From Escherichia coli (GTDB lineage Bacteria; Pseudomonadota; Gammaproteobacteria; Enterobacterales; Enterobacteriaceae), in the NCBI RefSeq assembly GCF_001677475.2, contig NZ_CP015229.1: DNA of 64,000 bases; one strand, written 5' to 3'. Positions within the stretch are counted from its first letter, which is position 1, and the number at the start of each line of letters is the position of its first letter. The notes beneath the pieces were generated by a model. The model did not search any database. It was not told the origin of the DNA and saw only the letters and a program-made list of their open reading frames with translations. Shown in pieces: positions 3,436-64,000 of the stretch. The translations under genes were made by a program, and so were the position numbers.

Positions 3436-3447
3436 CTATGCTTTACT

Positions 3448-5140: not shown

Positions 5141-5159
5141 GTAAAGAATGCGCGTATAA

Positions 5160-5456
<297 letters not shown>

Positions 5457-5730: not shown

Positions 5731-6051
5731 TCGTTTTTCCTTAAACAAGGAATGCAGCCGTTCAGATTAGCCCTTACATCTCCCCAAAACTGAACGTGCG
5801 AGTTATTGGAATCGAGTGCTGCACTCCACACCAGAGCTTTGACGACACCACTCGTTTCAATGGGGGAATTCAGTGGCATGGTGTAAAGCACAGCAAAATT
5901 GCCAATAACGAAACCGATTTTAATGTACTTATCAAAAAGCGGTCACGTTAATCTTTTCATCAATGTCGATTTCTTCGTAAAGGCTCGCGTTTTTTATGTC
6001 AGAGATTGCAAGTTGCTTGTACAGGTCAACTAAATTGATCCATAATCATTT

Positions 6052-6128
6052 CCGTTGGAATCGTGTGCTGCACAAAATTAAAGTTGTAAAGTGAAAACCC
6101 CCGTTCCTTACCAGTTCGGGGGTTTTAC
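6052..6128 (+). ncRNA. ohsC: candidate antitoxin sRNA OhsC, divergent from shoB
   Basis: Sigma70-like -35 TTGTAC / 18 bp / -10 CATAAT (6041-6046); rho-independent hairpin CCCCCG...CGGGGG + T-tract at 6098-6126; 19-nt segment 6055-6073 matches plus-strand 5806-5824 in the shoB 5'-UTR region at 18/19 positions, the expected pairing site. Confidence 0.45.
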
Positions 6129-6151
6129 TTTATAAAGAGAACGGTATTTTT

Positions 6152-6532
6152 TTAACTTTCAATAATTACCGTGGCACAAGCATAGTGGCGTTCATCTGCC
6201 AGCGTTACATGCATATTTACAACGCCGAGCTTTTCCGCCAGTTTTAATGCCTCACCCCATAGCCGTAGCCGTGGTTTGCCGAGCTCATCATTGAATACTT
6301 CAAATTGATTAAACGCCAGACCATTGCGGATCCCGGTGCCAAACGCTTTTGCCGCCGCTTCTTTCACAGCAAAACGCTTCGCCAGAAAACGCACCGGCTG
6401 GTGGTGCGTTTTCCAGATTGCCCATTCGTTATCGCTTAATACGCGGCGTGCCAGGCGTTCACCGGATCGGGCGATCACCGCTTCTATGCGAGCGATCTCC
6501 ACAATATCCGTACCTAAACCTAATATTGCCAT
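6152..6532 (-). CDS. acpS: holo-[acyl-carrier-protein] synthase
   Basis: 126-aa ORF starting [13 protein letters not shown]; last gene of the rnc-era-recO-pdxJ-acpS cluster. Confidence 0.95.
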
Positions 6533-7263
6533 TAGCCACGCGATTCCAGCATCAGACGCTTCATTTCTGCCACCGCATCTTTCAGTCCGGTCATCACTGC
6601 ACGACCAATAATGGCATGACCGATATTCAGTTCATGCATCTCAGGGATGGCAGCAATAGCTTTCACGTTGTGATAGGTCAGACCGTGACCAGCGTTAACT
6701 TTCAGACCGAGACTAGCGGCAAAGGTCGCGGCTTTGGCGATACGCGCCAGCTCTTGCGCCTGTTCGGCGTCAGTTTTGGCATCAGCATAGCAACCGGTGT
6801 GGATCTCGATAAACGGTGCGCCAACCTCTGCCGCAGCTTTGATCTGCTCTTCATCGGCGTCGATAAACAGAGAAACCTGGATCCCGGCCTCCGCCAGACG
6901 TTTACAGGCATCGCGCATTTTGTCACGCTGCCCTGCGACGTCCAGGCCGCCTTCGGTTGTTACTTCCTGACGCTTTTCCGGTACCAGACAGCAAAAATGT
7001 GGCTTCGTCTCAACGGCGATCGCCAGCATCTCTTCGGTCACCGCCATCTCCAGATTCATGCGGGTATCCAGCGTCTGCCGCAGGATACGCACGTCGCGGT
7101 CGGTAATGTGGCGGCGATCTTCACGTAAATGCACGGTAATGCCGTCCGCTCCCGCCTGCTCAGCAATAAACGCCGCCTGCACCGGATCCGGGTAAGCAGT
7201 ACCGCGTGCGTTACGCAGCGTTGCAATATGGTCAATGTTGACGCCTAACAGTAATTCAGCCAT
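6532..7263 (-). CDS. pdxJ: pyridoxine 5'-phosphate synthase
   Basis: 243 aa from [21 protein letters not shown]; 1-nt overlap with acpS. Confidence 0.95.
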
Positions 7264-7274
7264 GACAATCCTCA

Positions 7275-8003
7275 TCATTCATAATGTGTTTTCACCGTTC
7301 GCTTAGGCATAAACTGCCGGAACAGTTCCCTGCTCTTTAATGGTTTACCGCCAAGATACGGCTTAAGCGCCATGCGGGTAAAGCGTTTCGCGGCGCGTAG
7401 TGTGTCTGCGTCAGGAAATTCCCGCGCGTTTAACGCTTTTAACTGCCTTCCGGTGAACGTTTTATTGTCGATAACGACGCTTGCGATAAACCCTTTTTCT
7501 TCGCGATAACGATACGTCATGGTGTCATCTACCGGCTCGCCGCTACCCGCGCAATGGGTAAAATTGACGCCATAGCCCAGATGCCCGAGCAGTGCCAGTT
7601 CAAAGCGGCGCAGCGCGGGTTCTGGCGTACCAGTGGCACCTGCAAGTGACTGAATGCAGTGCAAGTAATCGAAAAAGAGTTCAGAGAAGCGCGTCTCGTA
7701 TTCCAGTACGCGGGAGAGAAGTTCGTTGATGTACAGACCGCTGTAAAGCGTGATACCGCTTAATGGCAGCGCCAGCGAGACAGCTTCAGCACTGCGCAGC
7801 GTTTTGACTTCGCCACGCCCGCCAAAACGTAGCAAGAGAGGGGTGAAAGGCTGTAATGCACCTTTCAGAGTAGAGCGTTTAGAGCGTGCGCCTTTGGCAA
7901 CCAGACGCACGCGACCCGATTCCTCCGTGAAGACGTCCAGCATCAGGCTGGTTTCGCTCCACGGGCGACTATGCAATACGAATGCGCGCTGCCAGCCTTC
8001 CAT
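7275..8003 (-). CDS. recO: DNA repair protein RecO
   Basis: 242 aa from [20 protein letters not shown]. Confidence 0.95.
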
Positions 8004-8134
8004 CATACTCGTCGCCTTTCAAGTTGCAGGTGCCTTGGCTGCACCCGTTCACCCTGGTCACTTACTTTAGTAAGCTCCCAGGGATTCACGGTCTTGCCGC
8101 CTTCCTGCACCTCGAAAGTCATAGAGTATGCTAA

Positions 8135-9747
<1,613 letters not shown>

Positions 9748-9988
9748 TCAGCACACGAAACAGACCTGATATACATGGCTCTGCTAACTGCTTCGCTGCA
9801 GTTTCAGTTTAGCGGTATATGGGGACCAACGCTGTTTCGTGTGCCGTGGCAACCTGGAGGTGCCAACCTTAAACTTCGGGGGAATATTCTATACACAACG
9901 ACGGGGGATGTCGTTAGCCACGGGAGATTTATCTCATAAATAATTCACGTTGTCGCCATAACGGCGACAACGTGAACGAAGATGGCTA

Positions 9989-10963
9989 TTAATGGATGCC
10001 GCCAATGCGACTTAAGCGCACACCTGTCGGCCATTCGCCTTCTTGCTTATCGAAGCTCATCCAGATAGCCGTTGCCCGACCGACCAGATTCGCTTCCGGC
10101 ACAAAGCCCCAGTAACGGCTGTCCGCGCTGTTGTCGCGGTTGTCGCCCATCATGAAGTATTGCCCCGGCGGTACAATCCAGGTTGCCAGTTGTTGCCCTG
10201 GCTGCTGGTAATACATCCCCACCTGATCCTGCGCAATCGGCACTGTCAGAATACGATGCGTCACATCACCCAGTGTCTCTTTACGCTCGGAAAGACGAAT
10301 TCCATTTTCTTTGGTTTCGTTTTTCGGCACTTCAAAGAATCCGCTGGTCGCTTCCCCACCATTACGGCGTGAGAAGGTCTGAACGAAATCGCTCGGTTCC
10401 ACGTTTGAGTAGGTGACCGGCAGCGCGTTTTCACACGCCTGGCCGGAACTGCATCCCGGTTGAATCGTCAGCTCTTTTGAGACCGGATCATAAGTGACTT
10501 TATCGCCCGGCAAACCCACCGCGCGCTTGATGTAATCAAGCTTTGGATCTTCCGGATATTTAAAGACCACGATATCGCCGCGTTTCGGATGACCGGTTTC
10601 GATCAGCGTTTTCTGGTAGATAGGATCTTTAATGCCATAAGCAAACTTCTCTACCAGAATAAAATCACCGATTAACAGAGTCGGCATCATCGAACCTGAC
10701 GGGATCTGGAACGGTTCATAAATAAACGAACGCACAATCAATACGATAGCCAGCACCGGAAAAACAGAAGCACCGGTTTCCAGCCAGCCAGGCTTCGGCG
10801 CAACTTTCTTCAGCGTTGCTTTATCCAGTGAGTCACCGGCAGCCGCCTGCGCCGCTGCCTGACGTTCCCGCCGTTTAGGTGCGAAAAAGAATTTATCCAC
10901 GCACCATAAAATGCCCGTCACCAGTGTGGCAATCACCAGAATCAGGGCAAACATATTCGCCAT
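9989..10963 (-). CDS. lepB: signal peptidase I
   Basis: 324 aa; catalytic Ser box SGSMMPTL; two N-terminal TM segments. Confidence 0.96.
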   Translation of the reverse strand: MANMFALILVIATLVTGILWCVDKFFFAPKRRERQAAAQAAAGDSLDKATLKKVAPKPGWLETGASVFPVLAIVLIVRSFIYEPFQIPSGSMMPTLLIGDFILVEKFAYGIKDPIYQKTLIETGHPKRGDIVVFKYPEDPKLDYIKRAVGLPGDKVTYDPVSKELTIQPGCSSGQACENALPVTYSNVEPSDFVQTFSRRNGGEATSGFFEVPKNETKENGIRLSERKETLGDVTHRILTVPIAQDQVGMYYQQPGQQLATWIVPPGQYFMMGDNRDNSADSRYWGFVPEANLVGRATAIWMSFDKQEGEWPTGVRLSRIGGIH

Positions 10964-13455: not shown

Positions 13456-14408
13456 TGCGCTGCCCCGAACTTAATATTCTCGGCAATGCGTTTCGCCGTT
13501 TGCGGCGGCAGTTCACCGACAATGGTGATTTCGGCGTTATCACGTACGCTTGTACTGACGGTTCTGCGTCCGGTGCGCAACATCTGATCGGTGCTCGATG
13601 GCGTAGCGCGGTTAACGTTTACCGAGAAGCTGAATAATCCGTCGGAATAGAGACGTGATTCGATAGGCATGTTGTCCATCGTCGGTAGCGGACGTCGACT
13701 ACTGGAAACTTCGCTAAAACCCTGTGGCAACCAGGTTGGCGTCCAGCTGAATTTAGCTTTTTCACCTACAGGAACAGAAAGCAACGGCGGCAAATTTGCC
13801 TTCGCCAGCGTCTGCATACTGCTGCTGATATCCTGATTGACGTTAAAAGCAATCACGCGAAATTGTTCCAGCGTTTCACCATCGCGATCAAGGAGATCAA
13901 CCCTCATCGGTAATTTCGATTCAGTGTCCATCCACACGATGTAGCTGTAGCGTGTACCATCTCGGGCAACCACGCGAATGACTTCGCAAAGACGATCAGC
14001 AATACGCGTGCGCCCGACGGAGATAAAGTCGTAGTAAGGAGAAAGGCGTTTGAAATCGGTATAGATGAGCGATGGCAGAGAATCAACAATGTAATCGCCA
14101 TTAAGCGTGAACGGTTCAAGTCCCGGTTCAAAATAGCTGATTTCATTGCCGCGCTGTACCACTTCCCGGCGCGGGCCATCCATTTGCAACAATTGTGCAA
14201 GAGGACGGTTATCGAGGCGTGCATGTCGATAACGCAGAGACTCAACACCCTGTTTATTGATGCTGATGAATGACAGCTCGTAATTCAGTGACTGACTGGC
14301 CAGGTTCATCTGCTGTAATAACGCCCCGGACGCGGGAGTGGCCGAGGCGTTAGCAGAGAATAACAGGCTACCTGTCACTAATGACATGGCAAACCAAAGT
14401 TGCTTCAT
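13452..14408 (-). CDS. rseB: sigma-E regulatory protein RseB (periplasmic)
   Basis: 318 aa with signal peptide; overlaps rseC and rseA stop/start. Confidence 0.95.
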   Translation of the reverse strand: MKQLWFAMSLVTGSLLFSANASATPASGALLQQMNLASQSLNYELSFISINKQGVESLRYRHARLDNRPLAQLLQMDGPRREVVQRGNEISYFEPGLEPFTLNGDYIVDSLPSLIYTDFKRLSPYYDFISVGRTRIADRLCEVIRVVARDGTRYSYIVWMDTESKLPMRVDLLDRDGETLEQFRVIAFNVNQDISSSMQTLAKANLPPLLSVPVGEKAKFSWTPTWLPQGFSEVSSSRRPLPTMDNMPIESRLYSDGLFSFSVNVNRATPSSTDQMLRTGRRTVSTSVRDNAEITIVGELPPQTAKRIAENIKFGAAQ

Positions 14409-19884: not shown

Positions 19885-19916
19885 TTTCAATGCCGGGTTT
19901 AAGCCCGGCATTGTTT

Positions 19917-20798
19917 TTATCCCGGCAAAAAACACTCTTCAACACACTGAATAAAAGTGTGCATCGCCGGGCTAACCGCTTTTCCAGCATGGTGTGCGCA
20001 CATTGCTGTAATCGTCTGCGACTGTTCGCCAAAAGGCAATTCGATTAACTCGCCGCTCGCCAATTCTTTTGCTACCGCAAAGCGCGGCAGGTAGCTGACC
20101 CCGATATTCGCCGCGACACAACGCTTGATGCTTTCGATACTTATAAGCTCAATGGTGTTTTCCACCGTGATCCGCCGCTGTCGCAGCGTGCTCTCAAATA
20201 TCTGCCGGAAGACACATTGCGGTTCATTGATAATAAAACTACAGGCGTTATGTATTCCCGGCTCAGTAAAATCGACATCTTTAATTTGCGGTGAAGCCAC
20301 CAGCACCAGTGATTGTTCACCCAACTCTCGTCGGTTCAGAGCATCATCATTCCCTACGCGATAAAAGACGCCAACATCGGCCTCATCATTCAGTAGCGCA
20401 TCACGGATCACGTAACAGTTCAGAGACTGCAACGATAAACGCACTTTTGGTGCGCGTTGCCGAAAACGCTGCAACACCTGCGGCATTCGGTAAGAAAGCA
20501 ACGTTTCGCCTGAAACAACGCGTAGTTCCCCGTCCGGATCCGACTCTTTTTTGGCAGCCTCACGAAGGGTATCCATCACTCTGGTGAGTTCATAAATGTG
20601 CGGCAGCAGCTTTTTTCCTTCGCGGGTAAGGCACATTCGTCGACCAATTTTCTCAAATAACTGGACTGAGAACTCCTGCTCAAGCTGCTGAATATGAAAA
20701 GTCACCGTCGATTGTGTGCAGCACAATTTTTGCGAAGCTCGCAAGAAGGAACCCTCTTCCATCACGGTTTTAAGCGTAATAAAACGGCGCAGATCCAT
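19917..20798 (-). CDS. yfiE: LysR-type transcriptional regulator
   Basis: 293 aa from MDLRRFITLKTVMEEGSF; LTTR HTH; divergent from eamB. Confidence 0.9.
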   Translation of the reverse strand: MDLRRFITLKTVMEEGSFLRASQKLCCTQSTVTFHIQQLEQEFSVQLFEKIGRRMCLTREGKKLLPHIYELTRVMDTLREAAKKESDPDGELRVVSGETLLSYRMPQVLQRFRQRAPKVRLSLQSLNCYVIRDALLNDEADVGVFYRVGNDDALNRRELGEQSLVLVASPQIKDVDFTEPGIHNACSFIINEPQCVFRQIFESTLRQRRITVENTIELISIESIKRCVAANIGVSYLPRFAVAKELASGELIELPFGEQSQTITAMCAHHAGKAVSPAMHTFIQCVEECFLPG

Positions 20799-49747: not shown

Positions 49748-50098
<351 letters not shown>

Positions 50099-50136
50099 TT
50101 AATCTCTTATCCTGGGTAAACTGATATCTCGGGGGC

Positions 50137-50904
50137 TTACGCCATCCCATCATGTTTATGTTGCTGTTGTGCGTGTTCCGTTTTGAACTCCGCCAGCAAC
50201 CTTGCTTGCTCTTCAGTCAGAGCCAGGTTTTCCAGAAGTTCAGGTCTTCTAAGCCAGGTACGGCCCAGCGACTGTTTCAAACGCCAGCGACGTATCTCGG
50301 CATGGTTGCCCGACAGTAACACTGGCGGAACTTCCATCCCTTCTAACACCTCAGGCCGCGTATAGTGCGGGCAATCCAGCAATCCTTCAGCAAAGGAATC
50401 TTCCGTTGCCGAGGCTTCATGTCCCAGTACTCCCGGAATAAACCGGGAAACGGAGTCAATCAGCGTCATTGCGGGTAACTCACCACCACTGAGAACGTAA
50501 TCGCCGATTGACCATTCTTCGTCAATTTCGGTTTGGATCACGCGCTCATCTATACCTTCGTAGCGACCGCACACCAGAATCAATTTTTGATTCGTTGCCA
50601 GTTCGCTGACGCCCGCTTGATCAAGCTTGCGTCCCTGTGGTGACAGATAAATCACCTTTGCGCCTTCACCCGCCGCGGCTTTTGCTGCATGAATGGCGTC
50701 CCGCAAGGGTTGCACCATCATTAACATCCCCGGTCCGCCGCCGTAAGGACGATCGTCCACGGTACGGTGCCGGTCATGCGTGAAGTCGCGAGGACTCCAG
50801 CTCTGGATGCTCAGCAGGCCATTTTTAACTGCCCGGCCAGTTACCCCGTAATCGGTAATTGCGCGGAACATTTCAGGAAACAGGCTAATTATGCCAATCC
50901 ACAT
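50137..50904 (-). CDS. trmD: tRNA (m1G37) methyltransferase
   Basis: 255 aa from [13 protein letters not shown]. Confidence 0.97.
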
Positions 50905-50934
50905 AGCGCCGTCTTTTACCGTTTATCCGGTGGT

Positions 50935-51483
50935 TTAAAAACCAGGATCCCAATCTACTTCGATTGAACGAGTAGTGAGATCGACTTTCTTGATAACCTG
51001 CCCATCGAGGAACGGTACGAGACGTTCCTTGATACCAAACGCATCTTTCAGGTTTGCCTTAATGACGAGAACATCATTAGATCCGGTTTCCATCATATCG
51101 ACGACTTTACCGAGATCGTAGCCTTCAGTGGTTACTACCTGGCAGCCCATCAGGTCTTTCCAGTAGTAGTCACCCTCTTCAAGCTGAGGCAGCTGCGATG
51201 AATCCACGACAATTTCACAATTCGTCAGCAGGTTCGCCGCATCACGATCGTCAACGCCTTTCAGCTTGATGATCATGTCCTGATTGTGGTGCTTCCAGCT
51301 TTCCAGCTGGACTTGCTGCCACTGACCCGCCTTCTGGATAAACCAGGGCTGATAGTCAAAAATGCTTTCGGCGTCTTCGGTGGAAGAAAACACTCTGAGC
51401 CACCCACGAATACCGTAAGACGAACCCATTTTTCCCAAAACGATGGGATCAACAGGTGCTTGCGCGGTGAGTTGTTTGCTCAT
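50935..51483 (-). CDS. rimM: ribosome maturation factor RimM
   Basis: 182 aa from [20 protein letters not shown]. Confidence 0.95.
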
Positions 51484-51501
51484 CATGACCACCGTGACAG
51501 A

Positions 51502-51828
<327 letters not shown>

Positions 51829-51998
51829 TTACTCATTTTTGCGGAAATTGCAATCAACAGTTGCTAACTCTGCTGTAAAAGGCCGTCGGCGGTGCAGCCA
51901 GTTTGGTGCCGGAGTGCGCGCAGTCACCGGAGCGTACACGCAGTACGTGAGGATGACGAGCACACCCCGGTGCCAAAATGGCAAACAAGCCAGGCCGA

Positions 51999-53360
51999 TT
52001 AGCGACCAGGAAATCCCGGCGGCATCATACCCTTCATGCTTCTCATCATCTTCGCCATTCCGCCCTTCTTCATTTTCTTCATCATGCGCTGCATGTCGTC
52101 GAACTGCTTCAGAAGGCGGTTAACGTCCTGTACCTGCATCCCGCAACCGGCGGCGATACGACGCTTACGCGAACCTTTGATGATTTCTGGCTTAGCGCGC
52201 TCTTTCATCGTCATCGAGTTGATGATGGCTTCCATACGCACCAACACTTTATCGTCCATCTGCGACTTGACGTTATCCGGGATCTGCCCCATGCCCGGCA
52301 GCTTGCCCATCAGGCTAGCCATGCCGCCCATATTTTTCATCTGGCGCAGCTGCTCAAGAAAGTCGTTGAGATCGAAGCCGTCGCCTTTTTTCAGCTTGCT
52401 GGCTAATTTCTCTGCCTGCGCGCGGTCAACTTTGCTTTCGATATCTTCGATCAGTGACAGTACGTCGCCCATGCCGAGAATACGCGACGCGATGCGGTCA
52501 GGATGGAACGGCTCCAGCGCCTCAGTTTTCTCGCCAACACCGAGGAACTTGATCGGTTTGCCAGTGATGTGACGAATAGAGAGCGCCGCACCGCCGCGGG
52601 CATCGCCGTCCACTTTGGTCAACACTACACCGGTAAGCGGTAACGCTTCATTGAATGCTTTTGCCGTATTGGCCGCATCCTGACCGGTCATGGCGTCAAC
52701 CACAAACAGGGTTTCAACCGGATTAATCGACGCATGGACTTGTTTGATCTCATCCATCATCGCTTCGTCAACGTGCAGACGACCAGCGGTATCCACCAGC
52801 AGCACGTCGTAGAATTTCAGTTTGGCTTCTTTCAGCGCCGCGTTAACGATATCTACCGGCTTCTGACCAACATCAGAAGGGAAGAAATCAACGCCCACCT
52901 GCTCTGCCAGCGTCTCAAGCTGTTTGATTGCCGCCGGGCGATAAACGTCGGCGGAAACCACCAGCACTTTCTTCTTGTGCTTCTCGCGCAGGAACTTACC
53001 GAGTTTACCAACGCTGGTTGTTTTACCGGCACCTTGCAGGCCCGCCATCAGCACGACCGCAGGCGGTTGCGCAGCCAGGTTCAGGGTCTGGTTCTCTTCG
53101 CCCATCGCCGCAACCAGTTCGTTACGGACGATTTTGACGAACTCCTGCCCCGGCGTCAGGCTCTTATTAACTTCATGACCAACCGCTTTCTCTTTTACGC
53201 GATTGATAAACTCACGCACTACCGGCAGAGCGACGTCCGCCTCCAGCAGCGCCATGCGCACTTCGCGCAGCGTATCTTTTACGTTGTCTTCAGTGAGGCG
53301 TCCACGGCCACTGATATTGCGCAGCGTGCGCGACAAACGATCGGTTAAATTATCAAACAT
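51999..53360 (-). CDS. ffh: signal recognition particle protein Ffh
   Basis: 453 aa; GTPase motif GLQGAGKTT and Met-rich C-terminal M-domain. Confidence 0.97.
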   Translation of the reverse strand: MFDNLTDRLSRTLRNISGRGRLTEDNVKDTLREVRMALLEADVALPVVREFINRVKEKAVGHEVNKSLTPGQEFVKIVRNELVAAMGEENQTLNLAAQPPAVVLMAGLQGAGKTTSVGKLGKFLREKHKKKVLVVSADVYRPAAIKQLETLAEQVGVDFFPSDVGQKPVDIVNAALKEAKLKFYDVLLVDTAGRLHVDEAMMDEIKQVHASINPVETLFVVDAMTGQDAANTAKAFNEALPLTGVVLTKVDGDARGGAALSIRHITGKPIKFLGVGEKTEALEPFHPDRIASRILGMGDVLSLIEDIESKVDRAQAEKLASKLKKGDGFDLNDFLEQLRQMKNMGGMASLMGKLPGMGQIPDNVKSQMDDKVLVRMEAIINSMTMKERAKPEIIKGSRKRRIAAGCGMQVQDVNRLLKQFDDMQRMMKKMKKGGMAKMMRSMKGMMPPGFPGR

Positions 53361-53526
53361 TGTCTCTCGCCTGGGGTGGAAACGGTTGGCCGCAATCGCG
53401 ACACATCATCAGTATTTTGCCGCAGTATAACATGAAGGCGTCTTTGTTGTTATGCAACGGTTGGAGCAGCGTTCACCTGACGCTATACTGCTTCTCTTTC
53501 TTATTGCTCAAACTGTCGACATTACT

Positions 53527-54318
53527 ATGCCCGTTTTTGCTCTGCTCGCGCTTGTCGCCTACTCCGTCAGTCTTGCGCTGATTGTTCCCGGTCTGCTGCA
53601 AAAAAATGGCGGCTGGCGGCGCATGGCTATTATTTCTGCGGTCATTGCGCTGGTCTGCCACGCAATCGCTCTGGAAGCCCGCATCCTGCCCGACGGTGAT
53701 AGCGGACAAAACCTCAGCCTGCTGAACGTTGGTTCATTGGTCAGTTTGATGATCTGTACGGTAATGACCATTGTGGCTTCTCGCAATCGTGGTTGGTTGC
53801 TGCTACCCATTGTCTATGCCTTTGCGCTTATCAACCTGGCGCTGGCAACCTTCATGCCCAATGAATACATCACCCATCTGGAAGCTACGCCTGGGATGCT
53901 GGTGCACATTGGCTTATCGCTCTTTTCCTATGCCACGCTAATTATCGCCGCCCTGTACGCGCTGCAACTGGCGTGGATTGATTACCAACTGAAGAACAAG
54001 AAGCTGGCGTTTAACCAGGAAATGCCGCCATTAATGAGTATCGAGCGTAAAATGTTCCACATCACGCAGATTGGCGTGGTGCTGCTAACGCTCACGCTTT
54101 GCACTGGCCTGTTCTACATGCACAACTTATTTAGCATGGAAAATATCGACAAGGCTGTGCTCTCTATCGTGGCGTGGTTTGTCTATATTGTGCTGCTGTG
54201 GGGACATTATCATGAAGGATGGCGTGGACGCCGCGTCGTCTGGTTTAACGTTGCGGGTGCAGTCATTCTGACACTGGCCTACTTCGGCAGTCGAATTGTC
54301 CAGCAGTTAATCAGCTAA
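53527..54318 (+). CDS. ypjD: inner-membrane protein YpjD (cytochrome c assembly / CcsA-like family)
   Basis: 263 aa from MPVFALLALVAYSVSLAL; multi-TM profile. Confidence 0.9.
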   Translation: MPVFALLALVAYSVSLALIVPGLLQKNGGWRRMAIISAVIALVCHAIALEARILPDGDSGQNLSLLNVGSLVSLMICTVMTIVASRNRGWLLLPIVYAFALINLALATFMPNEYITHLEATPGMLVHIGLSLFSYATLIIAALYALQLAWIDYQLKNKKLAFNQEMPPLMSIERKMFHITQIGVVLLTLTLCTGLFYMHNLFSMENIDKAVLSIVAWFVYIVLLWGHYHEGWRGRRVVWFNVAGAVILTLAYFGSRIVQQLIS

Positions 54319-54362
54319 ACCCAGAAAAGGAGTTTCCCCTGGAACACATTTCTACTACTACG

Positions 54363-55625
54363 TTGATCATTATTCTGATCATCATGGTGGTCATTTCAGC
54401 CTATTTTTCCGGGTCCGAAACCGGAATGATGACCCTCAACCGCTATCGTCTGCGACATATGGCGAAACAGGGTAATCGCTCGGCCAAACGCGTCGAAAAA
54501 TTGCTGCGTAAGCCAGACCGCCTGATAAGCCTGGTGTTAATCGGCAATAACCTGGTCAATATTCTTGCCTCCGCGCTCGGCACTATTGTTGGGATGCGTT
54601 TGTACGGCGATGCGGGCGTGGCAATTGCGACTGGTGTGCTGACTTTTGTCGTACTGGTTTTTGCTGAGGTATTGCCGAAAACCATTGCCGCGCTGTACCC
54701 GGAAAAAGTCGCTTATCCGAGTAGTTTTCTGCTGGCTCCGCTGCAAATTTTGATGATGCCGCTGGTCTGGTTGCTGAATGCTATCACCCGTATGCTGATG
54801 CGCATGATGGGTATCAAAACCGATATCGTGGTTAGCGGCTCTTTGAGCAAAGAAGAGTTGCGCACTATCGTGCACGAATCACGCTCACAAATTTCCCGTC
54901 GCAATCAGGATATGCTGCTGTCGGTGCTCGATCTGGAAAAAATGACCGTTGATGACATCATGGTGCCGCGCAGTGAAATTATCGGTATTGATATCAACGA
55001 TGACTGGAAATCGATTCTGCGCCAGCTCTCCCACTCACCTCACGGGCGCATCGTGCTCTACCGTGATTCGCTGGACGACGCCATCAGTATGCTGCGTGTG
55101 CGTGAAGCCTGGCGGTTGATGTCGGAGAAAAAAGAGTTCACCAAAGAAACCATGCTACGCGCCGCGGACGAGATCTATTTTGTCCCGGAAGGTACGCCGC
55201 TCAGCACGCAGTTGGTGAAGTTTCAGCGCAACAAAAAGAAAGTCGGCCTGGTCGTCAACGAGTATGGAGACATTCAGGGGCTGGTGACGGTTGAAGATAT
55301 TCTGGAAGAGATTGTCGGCGATTTCACTACCTCGATGTCGCCAACACTTGCCGAAGAGGTCACGCCGCAAAACGACGGTTCGGTGATTATCGATGGCACC
55401 GCCAACGTGCGGGAAATTAACAAAGCCTTTAACTGGCATCTACCGGAAGATGATGCCCGCACGGTTAATGGCGTCATTCTTGAGGCACTGGAAGAGATCC
55501 CTGTCGCAGGCACCCGCGTGCGTATTGGCGAGTACGATATTGATATTCTCGACGTACAGGACAATATGATTAAACAGGTAAAAGTCTTTCCTGTGAAACC
55601 GCTGCGCGAGAGTGTGGCGGAGTAA
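54363..55625 (+). CDS. yfjD: CNNM/CorC-family membrane protein YfjD (DUF21 + CBS pair + CorC_HlyC)
   Basis: 420-aa ORF from TTG 54363; the frame is open upstream to a CTG at 54339, which would give the 428-aa form I recall for K-12; start uncertain. Confidence 0.9.
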   Translation: MIIILIIMVVISAYFSGSETGMMTLNRYRLRHMAKQGNRSAKRVEKLLRKPDRLISLVLIGNNLVNILASALGTIVGMRLYGDAGVAIATGVLTFVVLVFAEVLPKTIAALYPEKVAYPSSFLLAPLQILMMPLVWLLNAITRMLMRMMGIKTDIVVSGSLSKEELRTIVHESRSQISRRNQDMLLSVLDLEKMTVDDIMVPRSEIIGIDINDDWKSILRQLSHSPHGRIVLYRDSLDDAISMLRVREAWRLMSEKKEFTKETMLRAADEIYFVPEGTPLSTQLVKFQRNKKKVGLVVNEYGDIQGLVTVEDILEEIVGDFTTSMSPTLAEEVTPQNDGSVIIDGTANVREINKAFNWHLPEDDARTVNGVILEALEEIPVAGTRVRIGEYDIDILDVQDNMIKQVKVFPVKPLRESVAE

Positions 55626-55709
55626 TACAGTGGCGAACTCCGGTTCGCCTTTCTTATCGCCGCCTTTTAGGATTCCATCAATTCCTTCCTTTTACTTCAC
55701 AATGCAATA

Positions 55710-56351
55710 ATGACATTTCAATTATTCGGAAAGGATATCAATGTTATGTCAGAAGATTATGTAATTGAGTGGGATAAGGATTTTGAAGACGATCTCAACG
55801 TTGTCGCCAGCGTGTTTTTCCCCCACAAGCCAACGCTATGGTCTGGTATCGTCTCTCAACTTGCCACCACTCCTGAAATCTTTGAAGACGAAGATGAGGA
55901 CGAATATGGATTGCAAGACGTTCTCGATTGTAGCGGTGGCGATTTAGGAAATGACGCATTGGGGCAAGCATTTTTACAAATCCTACGCATCGAAGGATTA
56001 ATCCATATTGTTGACTGGAAAGGCGAAGAAGAAGATGGTGAGCTGGCTAATTTTGCTGCTGACCGCTTCTACGATCTGTGTAAAGACCTGACAGCCTCAG
56101 AGACATTACGAAGTCTGCTTATCGACATAACTCAGGAAGATGAAATTGCAGATGCCTGCGAAGATGGTGATCGTTACCTTGACGAGATCTTTGGACGCAT
56201 TCAGGACCAGCTTAATGAACGGGGCTACCAAATTTTCAATCTGAATGAAGGAACAGATAGTTATAACGTGGCCGTTCTGCCAATGAACGAATATAAAAAA
56301 ATAGATGATTTCAACACGCCGTGGCTGGAAGTACAGGATTTTTTAAGCTAA
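55710..56351 (+). CDS. hypothetical highly acidic cytoplasmic protein (no recognised family); ORF sits in the yfjD-grpE spacer
   Basis: Clean 213-codon ORF with no competing frame; likely start ATG 55746 (AAGGA 10 nt upstream, 201 aa); hand count 29 Asp + 22 Glu vs 7 Lys + 6 Arg; no TM segment or signal peptide; appears AT-rich by eye relative to flanking genes. Confidence 0.6.
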   Translation: MTFQLFGKDINVMSEDYVIEWDKDFEDDLNVVASVFFPHKPTLWSGIVSQLATTPEIFEDEDEDEYGLQDVLDCSGGDLGNDALGQAFLQILRIEGLIHIVDWKGEEEDGELANFAADRFYDLCKDLTASETLRSLLIDITQEDEIADACEDGDRYLDEIFGRIQDQLNERGYQIFNLNEGTDSYNVAVLPMNEYKKIDDFNTPWLEVQDFLS

Positions 56352-56377
56352 AAAAATGGCCGACTTCGCGTCGGCCA
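56350..56377 (-). terminator. rho-independent terminator after grpE (bidirectional hairpin shared with the acidic ORF)
   Basis: Hairpin TGGCCGAC-gcgaa-GTCGGCCA followed by a T7 run on the minus strand, 8 nt after the grpE stop. Confidence 0.75.
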
Positions 56378-56385
56378 TCAGATAT

Positions 56386-57009
<624 letters not shown>

Positions 57010-57021
57010 CTAACTTCGCTT

Positions 57022-57050
57022 ATTATGGGGATCAGTTTCAGGGTTTCAAG
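57022..57050 (-). promoter_or_regulatory. sigma-32 heat-shock promoter of grpE
   Basis: Minus strand CTTGAAA - 13 nt - CCCCATAAT, near-consensus sigma-32 promoter. Confidence 0.75.
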
Positions 57051-57098
57051 GGAAGCACTCACATTGTCATCAATCTTCGCAACAAGGACCTCGGAAAA

Positions 57099-57977
57099 AT
57101 GAATAATCATTTCAAGTGTATTGGCATTGTGGGACACCCACGGCACCCCACTGCACTGACAACACATGAAATGCTCTACCGCTGGCTGTGCACAAAAGGT
57201 TACGAGGTCATCGTTGAGCAACAAATCGCTCACGAACTGCAACTGAAGAATGTGAAAACTGGCACGCTCGCGGAGATTGGGCAACAGGCTGATCTCGCGG
57301 TTGTCGTTGGCGGCGACGGTAATATGCTGGGCGCAGCGCGCACACTCGCCCGCTACGACATAAAAGTCATCGGCATCAACCGTGGCAACCTGGGTTTCCT
57401 GACCGACCTTGATCCCGATAACGCCCAGCAACAGTTAGCCGATGTGCTGGAAGGCCACTACATCAGCGAAAAACGTTTTTTGCTGGAAGCGCAAGTCTGT
57501 CAGCAAGATTGCCAGAAACGCATCAGCACGGCGATTAACGAAGTGGTACTTCACCCTGGCAAAGTGGCGCATATGATTGAGTTCGAAGTATATATCGACG
57601 AGATCTTTGCGTTTTCTCAGCGTTCCGATGGCCTGATTATTTCGACGCCAACAGGTTCCACCGCTTATTCCCTCTCAGCGGGAGGTCCGATTCTGACACC
57701 GTCTCTGGATGCGATTACCCTGGTGCCCATGTTCCCGCATACGTTGTCAGCACGACCACTGGTCATAAACAGCAGCAGCACGATCCGTCTGCGTTTTTCG
57801 CATCGCCGTAACGACCTGGAAATCAGTTGCGACAGCCAGATAGCACTGCCTATTCAGGAAGGTGAAGATGTCCTGATTCGTCGCTGTGATTACCATCTGA
57901 ATCTAATTCATCCGAAAGATTACAGTTATTTCAATACATTAAGCACCAAGCTCGGCTGGTCAAAAAAATTATTCTAA
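57099..57977 (+). CDS. nadK: NAD kinase
   Basis: 292 aa; GGDG motif ([14 protein letters not shown]). Confidence 0.96.
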
Positions 57978-57994
57978 TTTTACGCTAGCCTCTT

Positions 57995-58054
57995 TACTGT
58001 ATATAAAACCAGTTTATACTGTACACAATAACAGTAATGGTTTTTCATACAGGA
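57995..58054. promoter_or_regulatory. LexA (SOS) boxes of the recN promoter
   Basis: TACTGTATATAAAACCAGTT (57995-58014), TACTGTACACAATAACAGTA (58017-58036) and a weaker third CTGT..ACAG-like site to 58054; CTGT-N8-ACAG consensus. Confidence 0.75.
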
Positions 58055-58062
58055 AAACAACT

Positions 58063-59724
58063 ATGTTGGCACAACTGACCATCAGCAACTTTGCTATCGT
58101 TCGTGAGCTTGAGATTGATTTTCATAGCGGCATGACCGTAATAACTGGCGAGACCGGCGCGGGTAAATCTATTGCAATAGATGCCCTCGGTCTTTGTCTC
58201 GGTGGTCGCGCTGAAGCCGACATGGTGCGTACCGGCGCTGCTCGCGCTGACCTGTGCGCCCGTTTTTCTCTGAAAGATACGCCAGCGGCTCTGCGCTGGC
58301 TGGAAGAAAACCAGCTTGAAGACGGGCATGAATGTTTGCTTCGTCGCGTAATCAGCAACGATGGTCGCTCACGAGGTTTTATCAACGGTACAGCTGTTCC
58401 TCTGTCACAACTGCGCGAACTGGGTCAGTTGCTCATTCAGATCCATGGTCAGCACGCTCATCAGTTACTCACCAAACCCGAGCACCAAAAATTCCTGCTT
58501 GATGGCTATGCCAATGAAACCTCTCTACTTCAGGAAATGACCGCACGTTATCAGTTGTGGCATCAAAGCTGCCGTGACCTCGCGCATCATCAACAGTTAA
58601 GTCAGGAACGCGCCGCCCGTGCGGAACTGCTGCAATACCAATTAAAAGAACTTAACGAATTTAATCCGCAGCCCGGAGAGTTTGAGCAAATCGACGAAGA
58701 GTACAAACGTCTGGCGAACAGCGGTCAATTGCTGACCACCAGCCAGAATGCATTGGCATTAATGGCCGACGGTGAAGACGCAAACCTGCAAAGTCAGCTT
58801 TACACGGCTAAACAACTGGTGAGCGAATTGATTGGCATGGACAGCAAACTGTCCGGCGTACTTGATATGCTGGAAGAAGCTACCATCCAGATTGCTGAAG
58901 CCAGCGACGAACTGCGCCACTACTGCGATCGTCTGGATCTCGATCCCAACCGACTGTTTGAACTTGAACAGCGCATCTCAAAACAGATTTCGCTGGCACG
59001 TAAACATCACGTCAGCCCTGAGGCATTACCACAGTATTACCAGTCGTTACTGGAAGAACAGCAGCAACTGGACGATCAGGCCGACTCACAAGAAACGCTC
59101 GCGCTGGCGGTAACGAAACATCATCAGCAGGCACTGGAAACCGCGCGCGCATTACATAAACAACGCCAGCAATATGCAGAAGAACTTGCACAGCTGATCA
59201 CCGACAGTATGCATGCGCTCTCAATGCCGCATGGGCAGTTTACGATCGATGTTAAATTTGACGAGCATCACCTGGGCGCTGACGGTGCCGATCGTATTGA
59301 GTTTCGGGTAACCACCAACCCAGGTCAGCCAATGCAGCCTATTGCCAAAGTCGCATCCGGTGGTGAATTGTCCCGCATCGCATTGGCAATCCAGGTCATC
59401 ACGGCGCGTAAAATGGAAACCCCGGCACTGATTTTTGATGAAGTGGATGTAGGGATTAGCGGTCCAACAGCGGCAGTTGTCGGCAAACTGCTGCGTCAAC
59501 TCGGCGAATCAACTCAGGTGATGTGTGTTACCCACCTGCCACAAGTCGCGGGATGTGGTCATCAACACTATTTTGTCAGCAAAGAAACCGATGGTGCGAT
59601 GACAGAAACACACATGCAATCCCTGGATAAAAAAGCGCGGTTACAAGAGCTGGCGCGCCTGCTTGGTGGCAGTGAAGTCACACGTAATACACTGGCGAAT
59701 GCGAAAGAACTGCTTGCGGCGTAA
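58063..59724 (+). CDS. recN: DNA repair protein RecN (SMC-like)
   Basis: 553 aa; Walker A GETGAGKS and C-terminal signature region. Confidence 0.96.
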
Positions 59725-59872
59725 ACTTTTTTCCTGCTTCACGGTCAGAGTAAACAGCAAAACGCCGTAAGACCGGAAAGCAAAAGGTTTTAAAGTGATG
59801 AAAGGTCTATTATCATCGGCATATTACAGATGAGCCACGTACTGCTCGGGCCCGAAAAGGAATCAAATCACT

Positions 59873-60214
59873 ATGCGCTGTAAAACGCTGACTGCTGCAG
59901 CAGCAGTACTATTGATGTTGACCGCAGGCTGTTCCACTCTGGAGCGAGTGGTTTACCGTCCTGACATCAACCAGGGGAACTATCTGACCGCTAACGACGT
60001 ATCCAAAATACGTGTTGGCATGACGCAACAACAAGTTGCGTACGCATTGGGTACACCGCTGATGTCCGATCCATTTGGTACGAATACCTGGTTCTATGTC
60101 TTCCGCCAGCAACCAGGTCATGAAGGTGTAACGCAGCAAACGCTGACGCTGACCTTTAACAGTAGCGGTGTGTTGACCAATATTGATAACAAACCTGCGC
60201 TGAGTGGTAACTAA
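59873..60214 (+). CDS. bamE: outer membrane protein assembly factor BamE (SmpA)
   Basis: 113 aa; lipobox LTAGCS. Confidence 0.95.
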
Positions 60215-60242
60215 TAATAATAAAGTTGCTCTCAAAGACGTT

Positions 60243-60272
60243 AAAAAAGGTGCTCAATGAGCACCTTTTTTC
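60243..60272. terminator. bidirectional terminator between bamE and ratB
   Basis: Hairpin AGGTGCTC-aatg-AGCACCT flanked by an A6 run upstream and a T6 run downstream. Confidence 0.7.
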
Positions 60273-60278
60273 TGTCTG

Positions 60279-60569
60279 TTATTTATTCGCTGATTTTTCT
60301 GCTCGTTGCCTGCGAAGCTCTTTCGGATCGGCAATGAGAGGACGATAAATCTCCACCCGATCGCCATCATGTACAATATCGCTGAGTTTTGCCGGACGGC
60401 TGTAAATGCCGACTTTGTTTTTAGTTAAATCGATATCGGTACGCAATTCCAGCAAGCCACTGGCGCGAATAGCTTCTTCAACCGTCGCGCCCTCCTGCAG
60501 CGTCACGCGCTGCAGATACTGCTTCTCAGGTAGCGCATAAGCCACCTCAACGGCAATTTTACCTGGCAC
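60279..60569 (-). CDS. ratB: UPF0125 protein RatB (YfjF)
   Basis: 96 aa from GTG at 60567-60569 ([20 protein letters not shown]); the ORF track gives a 124-aa upstream-extended form. Confidence 0.85.
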
Positions 60570-61035
60570 TGTAAACCTCTTTCGCACGAACCGTAAAAGC
60601 CTGGACCATATTAGCCGCCAGTTCTTTAAACACGCGGCCAAAGGCGAGTTCAATCAACTTATTGGTAAACTCAAAATCGAGATGAAACTCGATACGGCAC
60701 GCCTCCTGACTCAGCGGCGTAAACTTCCAGCCACCGATCAATTTCTTGAACGGCCCATCCACCAGATTCATAAGAATACTTTGGTTACTGGTTAACTGGT
60801 TGCGGGTAGTAAACGTTTTGCTGATCCCAGCCTTAGAGACATCTACCGCCGCAGTCATCTGCCCAGGAGTGGACTCCAGAATCCGACTTCCGGTACAACC
60901 CGGCAAAAACTGAGGATAAGACTGAACGTCATTCACTAACTGATACATTTGCTCCGCGCTGTAGGGTACCAGTGCGGTCCGGCTAATCTGAGGCATAACA
61001 ATTTCCATCAACAAAAATCCAACAAATAATATCAT
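60559..61035 (-). CDS. ratA: ribosome association toxin RatA (YfjG), SRPBCC/polyketide-cyclase fold
   Basis: 158-aa ORF; overlaps ratB by 11 nt; start could instead be the internal MPQIS Met. Confidence 0.88.
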
Positions 61036-61166
61036 TTATCCTGCTGTAAAAAAAACGCTATCCCGGCGCTGGGTAACATCGGGTTCATGCTAAGATAGAG
61101 CCTTGTCCCCCGCAGGATTGATATGGGGTGTTTTCGATTTCAGATTACCGATGATTCACGACGCTT

Positions 61167-61649
61167 ATGACGAAGAAAAAAGCACATAAACCTGGTTCAG
61201 CGACCATCGCGCTTAACAAGCGCGCCCGTCACGAATACTTTATCGAAGAAGAGTTCGAAGCGGGACTTGCCCTGCAAGGCTGGGAGGTTAAATCCCTGCG
61301 CGCAGGAAAAGCCAATATCAGCGACAGCTACGTCCTTCTGCGTGACGGAGAGGCATTTCTGTTTGGCGCTAACATCACGCCAATGGCTGTGGCCTCCACG
61401 CATGTGGTGTGCGATCCTACCCGTACCCGCAAGTTACTTCTCAACCAGCGCGAACTGGACTCATTGTACGGTCGCGTCAATCGAGAAGGCTATACCGTAG
61501 TGGCGCTCTCCCTGTACTGGAAAAATGCCTGGTGCAAAGTGAAAATCGGCGTCGCCAAAGGTAAGAAACAGCATGATAAACGTTCAGATATCAAAGAACG
61601 CGAATGGCAGGTGGATAAAGCGCGTATCATGAAAAACGCCCACCGTTAA
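61167..61649 (+). CDS. smpB: SsrA-binding protein SmpB
   Basis: 160 aa from [29 protein letters not shown]. Confidence 0.97.
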
Positions 61650-61819
61650 ACCTGCACTGCAATTATTGACCCGCTCCTCACCGCGCCTCCCTCTCCGGCG
61701 GCGCGAATGCACATCTTATTGGCTATCACATCCGACACAAATGTTGCCATCCCATTGCTTAATCGAATAAAAATCAGGCTACATGGGTGCTAAATCTTTA
61801 ACGATAACGCCATTGAGGC

Positions 61820-61850
61820 TGGTCATGGCACTCATGAATCTGGTATACTT
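61820..61850 (+). promoter_or_regulatory. candidate ssrA promoter (extended -10)
   Basis: TGgTATACT at 61841-61849, 7 to 14 nt upstream of the mature tmRNA 5' end; no good -35. Confidence 0.5.
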
Positions 61851-61863
61851 ACCGTTACACATT

Positions 61864-62226
61864 GGGGCTGATTCTGGATTCGACGGGATTTGCGAAACCC
61901 AAGGTGCATGCCGAGGGGCGGTTGGCCTCGTAAAAAGCCGCAAAAAATAGTCGCAAACGACGAAAACTACGCTTTAGCAGCTTAATAACCTGCTTAGAGC
62001 CCTCTCTCCCTAGCCTCCGCTCTTAGGACGGGGATCAAGAGAGGTCAAACCCAAAAGAGATCGCGTGGAAGCCCTGCCTGGGGTTGAAGCGTTAAAACTT
62101 AATCAGGCTAGTTTGTTAGTGGCGTGTCCGTCCGCAGCTGGCAAGCGAATGTAAAGACTGACTAAGCATGTAGTACCGAGGATGTAGGAATTTCGGACGC
62201 GGGTTCAACTCCCGCCAGCTCCACCA
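61864..62226 (+). ncRNA. ssrA: tmRNA (SsrA), 363 nt, ending CCA
   Basis: 5' GGGGCUGAUUCUGGAUUCGACGGG, tag-coding region ...GCAAACGACGAAAACUACGCUUUAGCAGCUUAA, 3' GGGUUCAACUCCCGCCAGCUCCACCA. Confidence 0.97.
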
Positions 62227-62344
62227 CTTTTGATAGGACTGCAACCGGACAGCGGCAATAAAAACAGCCACTTACGGACACTGACCAGACAGTAAGCGGA
62301 CTTAAAAAAGACAAAAATATACACGCAAAATGCACGTGCATTTC

Positions 62345-62384
62345 AAAAAAGCCTCTGATTGTGAAGTCAGAGGCTTTTCTATTT
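62345..62384 (-). terminator. rho-independent terminator downstream of the phage tfa gene, in the ssrA-prophage junction
   Basis: Hairpin GCCTCTGA-cttcacaa-TCAGAGGC followed by TTTTTTG on the minus strand. Confidence 0.7.
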
Positions 62385-62424
62385 GTAACTAAGAGTAACA
62401 ATTCAACATGACGCAACCTACCAA

Positions 62425-62997
62425 TTACGTAACGTCAAACGCTCTGATTGAACGCAAATCATCCAGATTATTCAGTTGTTCCTTCATCTCGCGCTGGCGT
62501 TCGTGGATTTTAAAGCCCTCCGCCACCATGGCCACCATCATGGCATCGTTCAGCGCAATAAGTTTCTCCCTGGTCAGTATGACGTTGTTATTATCCGCAT
62601 CAGTCCAGAAAAAACCATCCGGAAGCAGTCCGGCCTGCGCTGTTGCAACCACGGGCGCAAGGCGTGACTGCGAGGTTTTTCCGCCATCAAAACGACGGCC
62701 ATCAAACGTGAAAATAAACTCAACGTTTTCCTGACTGTCGCGCCATGCCTCAATTTCCCGCCTTTTGGCATCCTTTGCCGCTGCAATAAGTTCCGGCGTG
62801 ACGGTGAACGGGGCGATTTCGCCCCATTTCCCGCTTTGCAGCTCCTGCCAGACATGCTGGCCTGTCGGGGCCATATCATCCTGTATGGCGGTATACAGGA
62901 CGAACTCCGTTTCACCTTCAAATAACACCTCGCAGTCAACCGCACCATTTTCAAGATAATGCGCGTTTCTGATGCCTTTCACCGCTCTGATTTTCAT
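62425..62997 (-). CDS. tfa: phage tail fibre assembly protein (Tfa-like chaperone)
   Basis: 190-aa ORF starting MKIRAVKGIRNAHYLENGAVDC, resembling lambdoid/K-12 cryptic-prophage Tfa N-termini; AAGGAA RBS; lies 14 nt downstream of the stf stop. Confidence 0.8.
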   Translation of the reverse strand: MKIRAVKGIRNAHYLENGAVDCEVLFEGETEFVLYTAIQDDMAPTGQHVWQELQSGKWGEIAPFTVTPELIAAAKDAKRREIEAWRDSQENVEFIFTFDGRRFDGGKTSQSRLAPVVATAQAGLLPDGFFWTDADNNNVILTREKLIALNDAMMVAMVAEGFKIHERQREMKEQLNNLDDLRSIRAFDVT

Positions 62998-63011
62998 GTC
63001 TTATTTCCTTA

Positions 63012-64000
63012 TTACTCAATGCGTACAAAAAGACCGATATAGCCACGCGTTGTATCGTGACTAATGCGGGTCCCCGAAAGCGCCGTGTAACGACCGGGGA
63101 AGTTGTATTCACCAGCACCGCCAATCACAACCTGCGGTGAGGATGCGTATGTCCCTGTATCGCTAACCCGTGCACTCATAGCCAGAGGGCCAAGACGGGA
63201 ACCCGGCACAATATCACCGAGCCCCAGAGACGCATCTGCACCAAAACTCTCCCCCTGATATGCCGCCATAATCGGCACACCAACGGCCGGGTATTTATAA
63301 TATGAGCCTGAGCCCGCCATCCTGGACAGCAGGTACGCCAGTGAATCTCCGTCGTATACAACTACCCGCGATGACATGTTCCAGCTGTTATCGCTGTCGT
63401 TGTACCGGTACTGCATATAGTGAATACAGTGTTCACCCTGATAATACTGGTTGTAGCACATCAGGGTTTTAAATTTGCGGACTGTGTCGGATTCACTGTT
63501 GGCGTACGGTGACCACATCACATCAATAATGCCGTTAAATTGCGTGGTACCGGTAAGCAGTTGCGAGGAGTCTGTAATACTGACCGCATACCGCCCCGGC
63601 GTGACTTTCTTCAACCACTCAACGAAATCAGACAGCCCCTCAAACGCCAGAGCGTCAGTGCTGGTGAATGCCTGTCCAAACCCATACATCCCGGACAGGG
63701 CCAGCCTGCCCGGTGTGCGGTCACGGATATCACTCTGGGGTTCCATCGTCGCAGCCGCGTTCAGCTCAAGCTCCGTGCGCATGGCTTCAGCCGTGTCATG
63801 CGCCAGTAATGCGCGGCCCTTCTCTGACAGCAGAGACAGTGAGGCATTCCCGTCTGTATTGAAGTACAGAAGATTATCTGCCCGTTGCGTCAGTGCGCTG
63901 ATTGCCGTTAAGACGTCATTAAGCGGTTGTTTGCCTGCCAGCGCGTTTGTGATTGTCGTCGCAAAGTTCGGGTCATTGCCCAGCGCCGCTGCCAGCTCGT
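63012..64000 (-). CDS. stf: phage side tail fibre protein (Stf-like), C-terminal ~329 codons; 5' end beyond window
   Basis: Minus-strand frame open from the window edge (hand translation 63783-63998 has no stop); contains the motif ALAGKQPLNDVLTAISALTQRADNLLYFNTDGNASLSLLSEKGRALLA, similar to the conserved shaft segment of lambda/Rac/e14 Stf; followed by tfa. Confidence 0.8.
   Translation of the reverse strand, partial: ELAAALGNDPNFATTITNALAGKQPLNDVLTAISALTQRADNLLYFNTDGNASLSLLSEKGRALLAHDTAEAMRTELELNAAATMEPQSDIRDRTPGRLALSGMYGFGQAFTSTDALAFEGLSDFVEWLKKVTPGRYAVSITDSSQLLTGTTQFNGIIDVMWSPYANSESDTVRKFKTLMCYNQYYQGEHCIHYMQYRYNDSDNSWNMSSRVVVYDGDSLAYLLSRMAGSGSYYKYPAVGVPIMAAYQGESFGADASLGLGDIVPGSRLGPLAMSARVSDTGTYASSPQVVIGGAGEYNFPGRYTALSGTRISHDTTRGYIGLFVRIE

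Follow-up and report, generated by a model that had tools for sequence, protein, structure and literature searches.

The window analyzed here is a 64,000-nt stretch of Escherichia coli DNA (NCBI RefSeq assembly GCF_001677475.2, contig NZ_CP015229.1), close to whose end ssrA, which encodes transfer-messenger RNA (tmRNA), is followed by two phage tail-fiber genes. Positions 62200–64000 are very probably the tail-fiber-proximal attachment junction of a temperate lambdoid phage, corresponding to the attR end of prophage lambda. The arrangement is neither new nor rare: roughly one complete E. coli genome in ten has it, and descriptions date back to 2005. The initial annotation of the window had pointed out that in E. 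coli K-12 the integrase gene intA lies immediately after ssrA, and had proposed for the window either the opposite attachment junction or an inverted, deleted, or rearranged element. The K-12 layout given there is correct: in strain MG1655, intA begins about 200 bp past ssrA on the same strand, and the list of open reading frames (ORFs) for positions 62227–64000 contains no integrase-like ORF. Among the proposed explanations, the opposite junction is the correct one, in agreement with the attP of a free phage and with the layout of a complete prophage, both described below, and neither inversion nor deletion is needed.

The attachment core and the tail-fiber-side arm

The tmRNA gene is complete (positions 61864–62226, plus strand). 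ARAGORN predicts it with the tag ANDENYALAA, and Rfam family RF00023 gives the same coordinates (295.8 bits over the full model, positions 1–374). We take ssrA as the probable bacterial attachment-site gene, with its last 27 nt, CGGGTTCAACTCCCGCCAGCTCCACCA (62200–62226, plus strand), as the att common core; T-arm, acceptor 3' strand, and CCA all fall within these 27 nt. In alignment, an identical core is shared by the window, the attP of the free phage LMessi, and the two junctions of the E. coli MFDS1022581 prophage. The window itself holds one copy, with no second one found even when four mismatches were allowed. K-12 and the P4-type and P2-type occupants of ssrA diverge from the window at the first base past the core, that is, past the CCA.

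In the LMessi genome (PP925823.1), an integrase gene (plus strand) is followed by a 132-nt P' arm, the core CGGGTTCAACTCCCGCCAGCTCCACCA, an arm like that of the window, and tail-fiber genes (minus strand), and this segment is the phage attP. The arm of the window fills the 198-bp spacer between ssrA and the next ORF (62227–62424), a length in line with the estimate of about 200 bp in the initial annotation. It is 100 per cent identical to the arms of MFDS1022581 and of a second relative (H2), and positions 62227–62401 match the LMessi arm at 86 per cent over 175 nt, the first approximately 63 nt being identical.

The phage-derived arm has two further features. An octamer, A(A/T)ATG(C/T)AC, recurs between positions 62317 and 62343, as ATATACAC (62317–62324, with one mismatch), AAATGCAC (62328–62335), and, in inverted orientation, GTGCATTT (62336–62343); the latter two together form a perfect 16-nt palindrome, AAATGCACGTGCATTT. 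In LMessi, MFDS1022581, O26, and PhiR12, each of the two att arms contains pairs of the octamer 11 nt apart, and shuffled versions of the window arm contain it rarely (mean count of 0.035; probability of two or more copies = 0.0004). We infer that these pairs are candidate arm-type integrase-binding sites. Next to them, at positions 62347–62378, lies a hairpin with a 12–14 bp stem, preceded by a run of A and followed by a run of T, which looks like a bidirectional intrinsic terminator serving both ssrA and the converging tail-fiber (late) operon.

The tail-fiber genes

Both tail-fiber genes are on the minus strand and converge on ssrA, so that stf and its accessory gene are transcribed toward the attachment site, as the initial annotation had described. 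Both ORFs are open and of full length as far as they are visible, with no sign of decay in the visible 1.77 kb. The gene farther from ssrA is the side tail-fiber gene stf, of which the C-terminal 328 codons (63012–64000) are present before it runs off the end of the window. Its ORF remains open through position 63998, matches the C-terminal half of the profile of phrog_2636 ("tail fiber protein"; E = 3e-75), and represents about 47 per cent of a side tail fiber of approximately 696–698 amino acids. Full-length copies that are 99.7–99.8 per cent identical in nucleotide sequence to the stf of the window carry the domains PF08400 and PF03406.

The gene nearer ssrA (62425–62997), the last of the phage late operon, encodes a 190-aa tail-fiber-associated protein that matches phrog_1141 ("tail fiber protein"; E = 5.6e-83). 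It occupies the position of tfa, the label given in the initial annotation. However, the only family in the precomputed Pfam assignments of the exact protein is PF14301 (DUF4376); Caudo_TAP (PF02413) is absent from them, and searches of NCBIfam and of Protein Data Bank (PDB) sequences returned no match. The tfa label is therefore positional only, and by its domain content the protein is not a canonical tail-fiber assembly protein Tfa. For neither of the two ORFs did the NCBIfam and PDB sequence searches give anything informative about function.

A complete relative and a model of integration

The closest complete relative is an approximately 45.8-kb Stx2g prophage of strain MFDS1022581 (NZ_CP169399.1, about 1,178,619–1,224,369). 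Its ssrA–arm junction is identical to that of the window (100 per cent over 325 nt), and the same DUF4376–stf order opens a complete lambda layout: ssrA, arm, DUF4376, stf, lom, J, tail, head, terminase, lysis, stx2g, Q, replication, repressor region (cI-like), xis, int, and core repeat. This is the standard lambda prophage order. It differs from the window in that its stf and tfa-position genes are just approximately 91 per cent identical to those of the window, and many of its genes are annotated as frameshifted. The initial annotation had suggested that a repeat of the ssrA 3' end would mark the other attachment junction, and such a repeat is present here: an exact copy of 23 nt (27 nt in alignment) lies 137 bp past the int stop codon in the same orientation (positions 13597–13619 of the NZ_CP169399.1 locus extract, L004). 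The P' arm of this prophage is homologous to the first arm of LMessi. The integrases tied to the core, from MFDS1022581, LMessi, and PhiR12_1, share 87–90 per cent identity with one another (88 per cent between LMessi and MFDS1022581) and have no meaningful similarity to the P4-type IntA, the P2-like integrase, or the integrase of prophages located at prfC.

Past the distal core of MFDS1022581 (about positions 13470–13596 of L004, minus strand), the sequence shows a weak likeness to the tail-side arm, GGACA..CAA.AAAAACAG..TTA, after which come pseudogenes of AIDA-type autotransporters. This arm-like sequence may be the remnant arm of an earlier element integrated at ssrA.

The lambda prophage is laid out as attL–int–xis...J–lom–stf–tfa–b region–attR, with attP located between the tail-fiber end and the 3' end of int. 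In the model that we propose for the window, Campbell-type site-specific recombination would have inserted a phage of this layout into the 3' end of ssrA. The phage attP, between the 3' end of the integrase gene and the tail-fiber module, would carry a copy of the 27-nt ssrA 3' end, oriented so that the tail-fiber arm lies downstream in the sense of ssrA. Crossover within the core would join the chromosomal body of ssrA to the phage core and arm and to the converging tfa-position and stf genes; integration would thereby regenerate an intact tmRNA gene and supply it with a terminator, and would move the int–xis end to the far junction, where the displaced 3' fragment of ssrA should sit. Because of the orientation of the attP core, the tail end is expected to lie next to the restored ssrA, with the integrase at the distal junction, and with such an attP layout no inversion or deletion has to be invoked. 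The absence of an integrase beside ssrA is then what a tail-fiber-side junction of a lambda-like prophage predicts. By analogy with MFDS1022581, a distal integrase and core repeat would also be present in this strain's copy.

Relatives and frequency

To gauge how common the junction is, we searched 5,426 complete E. coli genomes with a 325-nt probe (the arm preceded by the final 127 nt of ssrA), requiring at least 80 per cent coverage. An intact ssrA fused to a homologous arm was found in 515 genomes, including enterohemorrhagic E. coli (EHEC) of serogroups O26, O103, and O121; thirteen of the matches have at least 99.4 per cent identity. All five relatives that were inspected have a lambdoid tail or late end adjoining ssrA. 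One of them is MFDS1022581 with its complete prophage. Next to ssrA, PSS-15 carries DUF4376, stf, lom, and J; E300082 carries fragments of the tfa-position gene and stf, then lom, J, and sodC; O26 RM10386 carries a dinI pseudogene followed by espK, espN, and nleL; and OkiPb01695 carries a remnant scrambled by IS66 and IS21 behind the same junction. The impression in the initial annotation that the layout is unusual is therefore not borne out for lambdoid or P2-like phages at ssrA: 515 genomes have the homologous arm fused to an intact ssrA, and both the cryptic prophage CP-1639 and a P2-like prophage from the window's own lineage (L045) have a tail end there. In the closest complete relative, such genes are part of a prophage of well-characterized type and standard layout, which the initial annotation had named as grounds for refuting its reading.

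Among viral contigs in IMG/VR, an exact 52-mer spanning core and arm occurs on 19; on most of them it is joined to an ssrA body, from E. coli or from other sequence types, and on 5 it stands in non-ssrA, attP-like, or tandem contexts. One contig (IMGVR_UViG_2534681675_000025, positions 936–4322; L031) holds a tandem array at ssrA, in which a P2-like integrase (337 aa) and the antiphage protein GapS1 (NF047931, 428 bits, above the cutoff) are encoded just upstream of a displaced, longer ssrA fragment, which is followed by a window-type arm and a DUF4376 gene of approximately 96 per cent identity. PADLOC v2 gave no matches among the neighbors of the attP-like viral contigs, GapS1 being recognized by NCBIfam only. 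In AP025741.1 (GCA_030295155.1, positions 1–10573; L010), the same arm, DUF4376 gene, and stf stand beside ssrA at 96.3 per cent identity to the window. Before them come genes for a tail and baseplate of myovirus type (tube, gpU, gpX, gpD, W, J, I, a Phage_tail_fib fiber, and a Caudo_TAP gene). This phage thus has two tail-fiber sets, and the module is found once more in the same genome, at prfC (L009).

Comparison with known elements at ssrA

The gene ssrA is an established insertion site for Stx phages and effector phages (PMC8065619; PMC11597368; PMC10673567), EspK phages among them (PMC10673567). CP-1639, the cryptic Stx1 prophage of E. coli O111 strain 1639/77 (AJ304858; Creuzburg et al. 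2005, Microbiology 151:941, as cited in PMC10673567), is, like the element in the window, lambdoid and located in ssrA with its tail-fiber/lom/J end toward that gene, in the order smpB, ssrA, dinI, tail fiber, lom, J. Past the CCA, its arm and the window's are homologous (85.5 per cent over a 212-nt BLAST match that includes the last 37 nt of ssrA). It differs in having a dinI-like gene between the arm and a different pair of tail-fiber genes, whereas in the window, which lacks dinI, the DUF4376 gene follows the arm directly; in addition, its int end is degraded and carries IS629. The prophages with EspK and other type III secretion effectors at ssrA in EHEC O26, O103, and O121 (e.g. RM10386; Bonanno et al. 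2015, as cited in PMC10673567) likewise combine an intact ssrA with a homologous arm (approximately 90 per cent over 302 nt) and have their late or cargo end at ssrA, but the arm is followed by a dinI pseudogene, espK, espN, and nleL instead of directly by tail-fiber genes. LMessi, for its part, shares the core and a homologous arm but has a 37-kb genome, other tail-fiber genes, and an arm that diverges after the first approximately 63 nt.

CP4-57 of K-12, a P4-type island, uses the same target gene and diverges from the window right after the CCA. It has no tail genes, and its P4-type IntA (413 aa), whose gene follows ssrA directly and in the same orientation, has no relation to the lambda-type family tied to the arm of the window. 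A P4-type integrase of approximately 413 aa in this position and orientation is found in K-12 and in another contig of the window's lineage (L043) and is missing from positions 62227–64000. The ogr, gpD, and gpU genes and P2-type arm that mark P2-like (Fels-2 type) prophages at ssrA are likewise missing from the window and present in L045. What the window does have is the set of features of the lambdoid type represented by CP-1639, Stx, and EspK prophages, namely, an intact tmRNA gene with the approximately 27-nt core and an element beginning after the CCA, an attP-like arm, and an stf module pointing toward the attachment site. Every feature of a tail-side junction of an ssrA-integrated lambdoid prophage that can be looked for in the window is thus there. 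As in lambda, such a prophage has int at one end and tail fibers at the other, as seen in MFDS1022581; unlike lambda, which inserts between gal and bio and not into an RNA gene, it has the ssrA 3' end as its core, and its tail-side junction regenerates the gene.

The tail-fiber module at prfC

Lambdoid prophages located between prfC and yjjG carry a block of stf, DUF4376, and arm that is 99.7–99.8 per cent identical to that of the window (L002 [NZ_CP169309.1, about 19903–20226], L005, L006, L008, L009, L011, and L012). Inside these prophages lies a 23-nt relic of the ssrA core, which at "...GTGCC(T)GCGG|T" runs into the native 3' flank of a dinI-like gene. The integrase that these prophages encode bears no relation to the core-linked family. 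From these features, the prfC-site copies appear to be mosaic derivatives of the ssrA-type module and not the source of the junction in the window. The relics look like the outcome of a mosaic transfer of the att-linked tail-fiber module, possibly by a secondary-site or microhomology event. A more far-reaching idea, which we consider unlikely, has two parts: the unseen prophage of this divergent lineage would carry uncharacterized cargo (such as a toxin, effector, or defense system), and the stf–DUF4376–arm–half-core block would be a mobile unit linked to att, passed by Int-mediated secondary-site or microhomology recombination among phages whose integrases differ. The second part is suggested by the core relic joined at GCGG|T to the dinI flank.

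Alternative explanations

Several observations weigh against the tail-fiber-proximal junction as we interpret it. The prophage body lies past position 64000. Two public draft contigs, from GCA_016118665.1 and GCA_033692315.1, match the window at 100 per cent over 11.6 kb and end at most 496 bp past it, inside stf, and all other contigs of the window type in the same RecN lineage also break inside stf. The best backbone identity to a complete E. coli genome is 97.8 per cent (over the 12-kb backbone), and an exact 41-mer scan of species-representative genomes yielded no matches. The stf–tfa segment is nearer to the prfC-site prophages (99.7–99.8 per cent) than to other ssrA-site prophages (91–96 per cent), which indicates mosaicism. 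Finally, some relatives with the same junction are riddled with insertion sequences (ISs) or truncated, and in L010 myovirus-type tail genes lie behind the same stf/tfa pair.

The last of these points lead to the most serious alternative: that a true att junction is followed not by an intact lambdoid prophage but by a remnant, whether degraded, disrupted by ISs, truncated, or hybrid, which would be the deleted or rearranged element of the initial annotation. Precedents exist in the scrambled OkiPb01695, the fragmentary tfa and stf of E300082, the heavily frameshifted annotation of MFDS1022581, the cryptic, IS629-bearing CP-1639, and the baseplate genes that the pair abuts in L010, and we regard such a state as a real possibility while leaning against it. 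The ORFs of the window are open; its arm, candidate integrase sites, and terminator are intact; and stf runs at least 496 bp further in identical contigs (the longest extension, in L013, is 496 bp and still within stf). Degradation may nevertheless have occurred further into the element, which would touch the unseen part only and leave the reading of the junction unaffected. It is, on the other hand, very improbable that homologous recombination or inversion between resident lambdoid prophages (e.g. at prfC and ssrA) brought the tail end to ssrA. The near-identity of the phage part to tail ends of prfC-site prophages and the occurrence of both copies in AP025741 would fit such an exchange, but the core and arm are contiguous exactly as in the attP of a free phage, in a complete prophage this junction goes together with a distal integrase and a collinear lambda order, and the backbone upstream of the junction is collinear with all E. 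coli genomes. Moreover, the prfC copies hold just the 23-nt core relic, which argues that they derive from the ssrA-type module. Given the truncated relic on the dinI flank and the unrelated integrase, we rejected the idea that the junction arose from a prfC-site prophage, whether by inversion or by recombination.

Equally hard to sustain, and if anything less probable still, is the notion that the two tail-fiber genes are an isolated fragment between ssrA 3' repeats, or the leftover of a tandem array, with another element such as a P4-type island next to them. Tandem arrays do exist at ssrA, as in L031, where P2-like int and GapS1 precede a displaced ssrA fragment and a window-type arm, and the sequence past the distal core of MFDS1022581 weakly resembles another arm. 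In the window, however, a search allowing up to four mismatches revealed no second core, and what interrupts stf is the window edge and no repeat, the gene running on in identical contigs. We therefore rejected the two-gene fragment, which the initial annotation had named as an outcome that would undo its reading.

Chromosomal context and other occupants of ssrA

Upstream of ssrA and outside the element, a 160-aa ORF at positions 61167–61649 (plus strand) corresponds to the chromosomal gene smpB, being annotated as SmpB in aligned relatives. Over positions 50000–62230, the backbone has at most 97.8 per cent identity to each of the 5,426 complete genomes, which points to a divergent Escherichia lineage, with no closed representative among them, as the source. 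A DUF6630-family gene (about 201–213 aa) lies between yfjD and grpE at positions 55710–56351 (plus strand); it is present in E300082 and in the window's lineage and absent from MFDS1022581, H2, PSS-15, and O26 RM10386.

Contigs encoding the exact RecN of the window (58063–59721; L043–L050) carry at least five different occupants after ssrA. In L043 a P4-type integrase is accompanied by H-NS-like and CSD genes, and in L044 another P4-type integrase by helicase, AbiJ_NTD4, and NERD genes; L045 has a P2-like prophage whose ogr/D/U end lies at ssrA; L046 has a 1,524-aa ORF; and L047 and L048 have the DUF4376/stf pair of the window. In the aligned occupants (L043, L045, and K-12), divergence starts at the first base past the CCA.

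Implications

The expectation of an integrase next to the RNA gene, and hence the surprise expressed in the initial annotation, came from generalizing the P4-type layout of K-12. The rule that an integrase lies beside the tRNA or tmRNA gene holds for P4-type islands and not for lambda-like or P2-like phages, whose attP separates int from the tail or late end and which therefore leave the intact RNA gene at the tail-side junction; the Islander paper states no rule on integrase position. The junction itself brings no new biology, and its value is mainly that of a calibration point. For annotation, a prophage begins at the edge of the window, and stx1, stx2g, stx2f, espK/espN/nleL, and sodC are found among its relatives. 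By analogy with the stx2g, espK/espN/nleL, sodC, and GapS1 of such relatives, it is plausible, as the initial annotation had proposed, that accessory or defense genes lie beyond the window, and because the cargo of relatives is medically relevant, the full element of this strain deserves typing.

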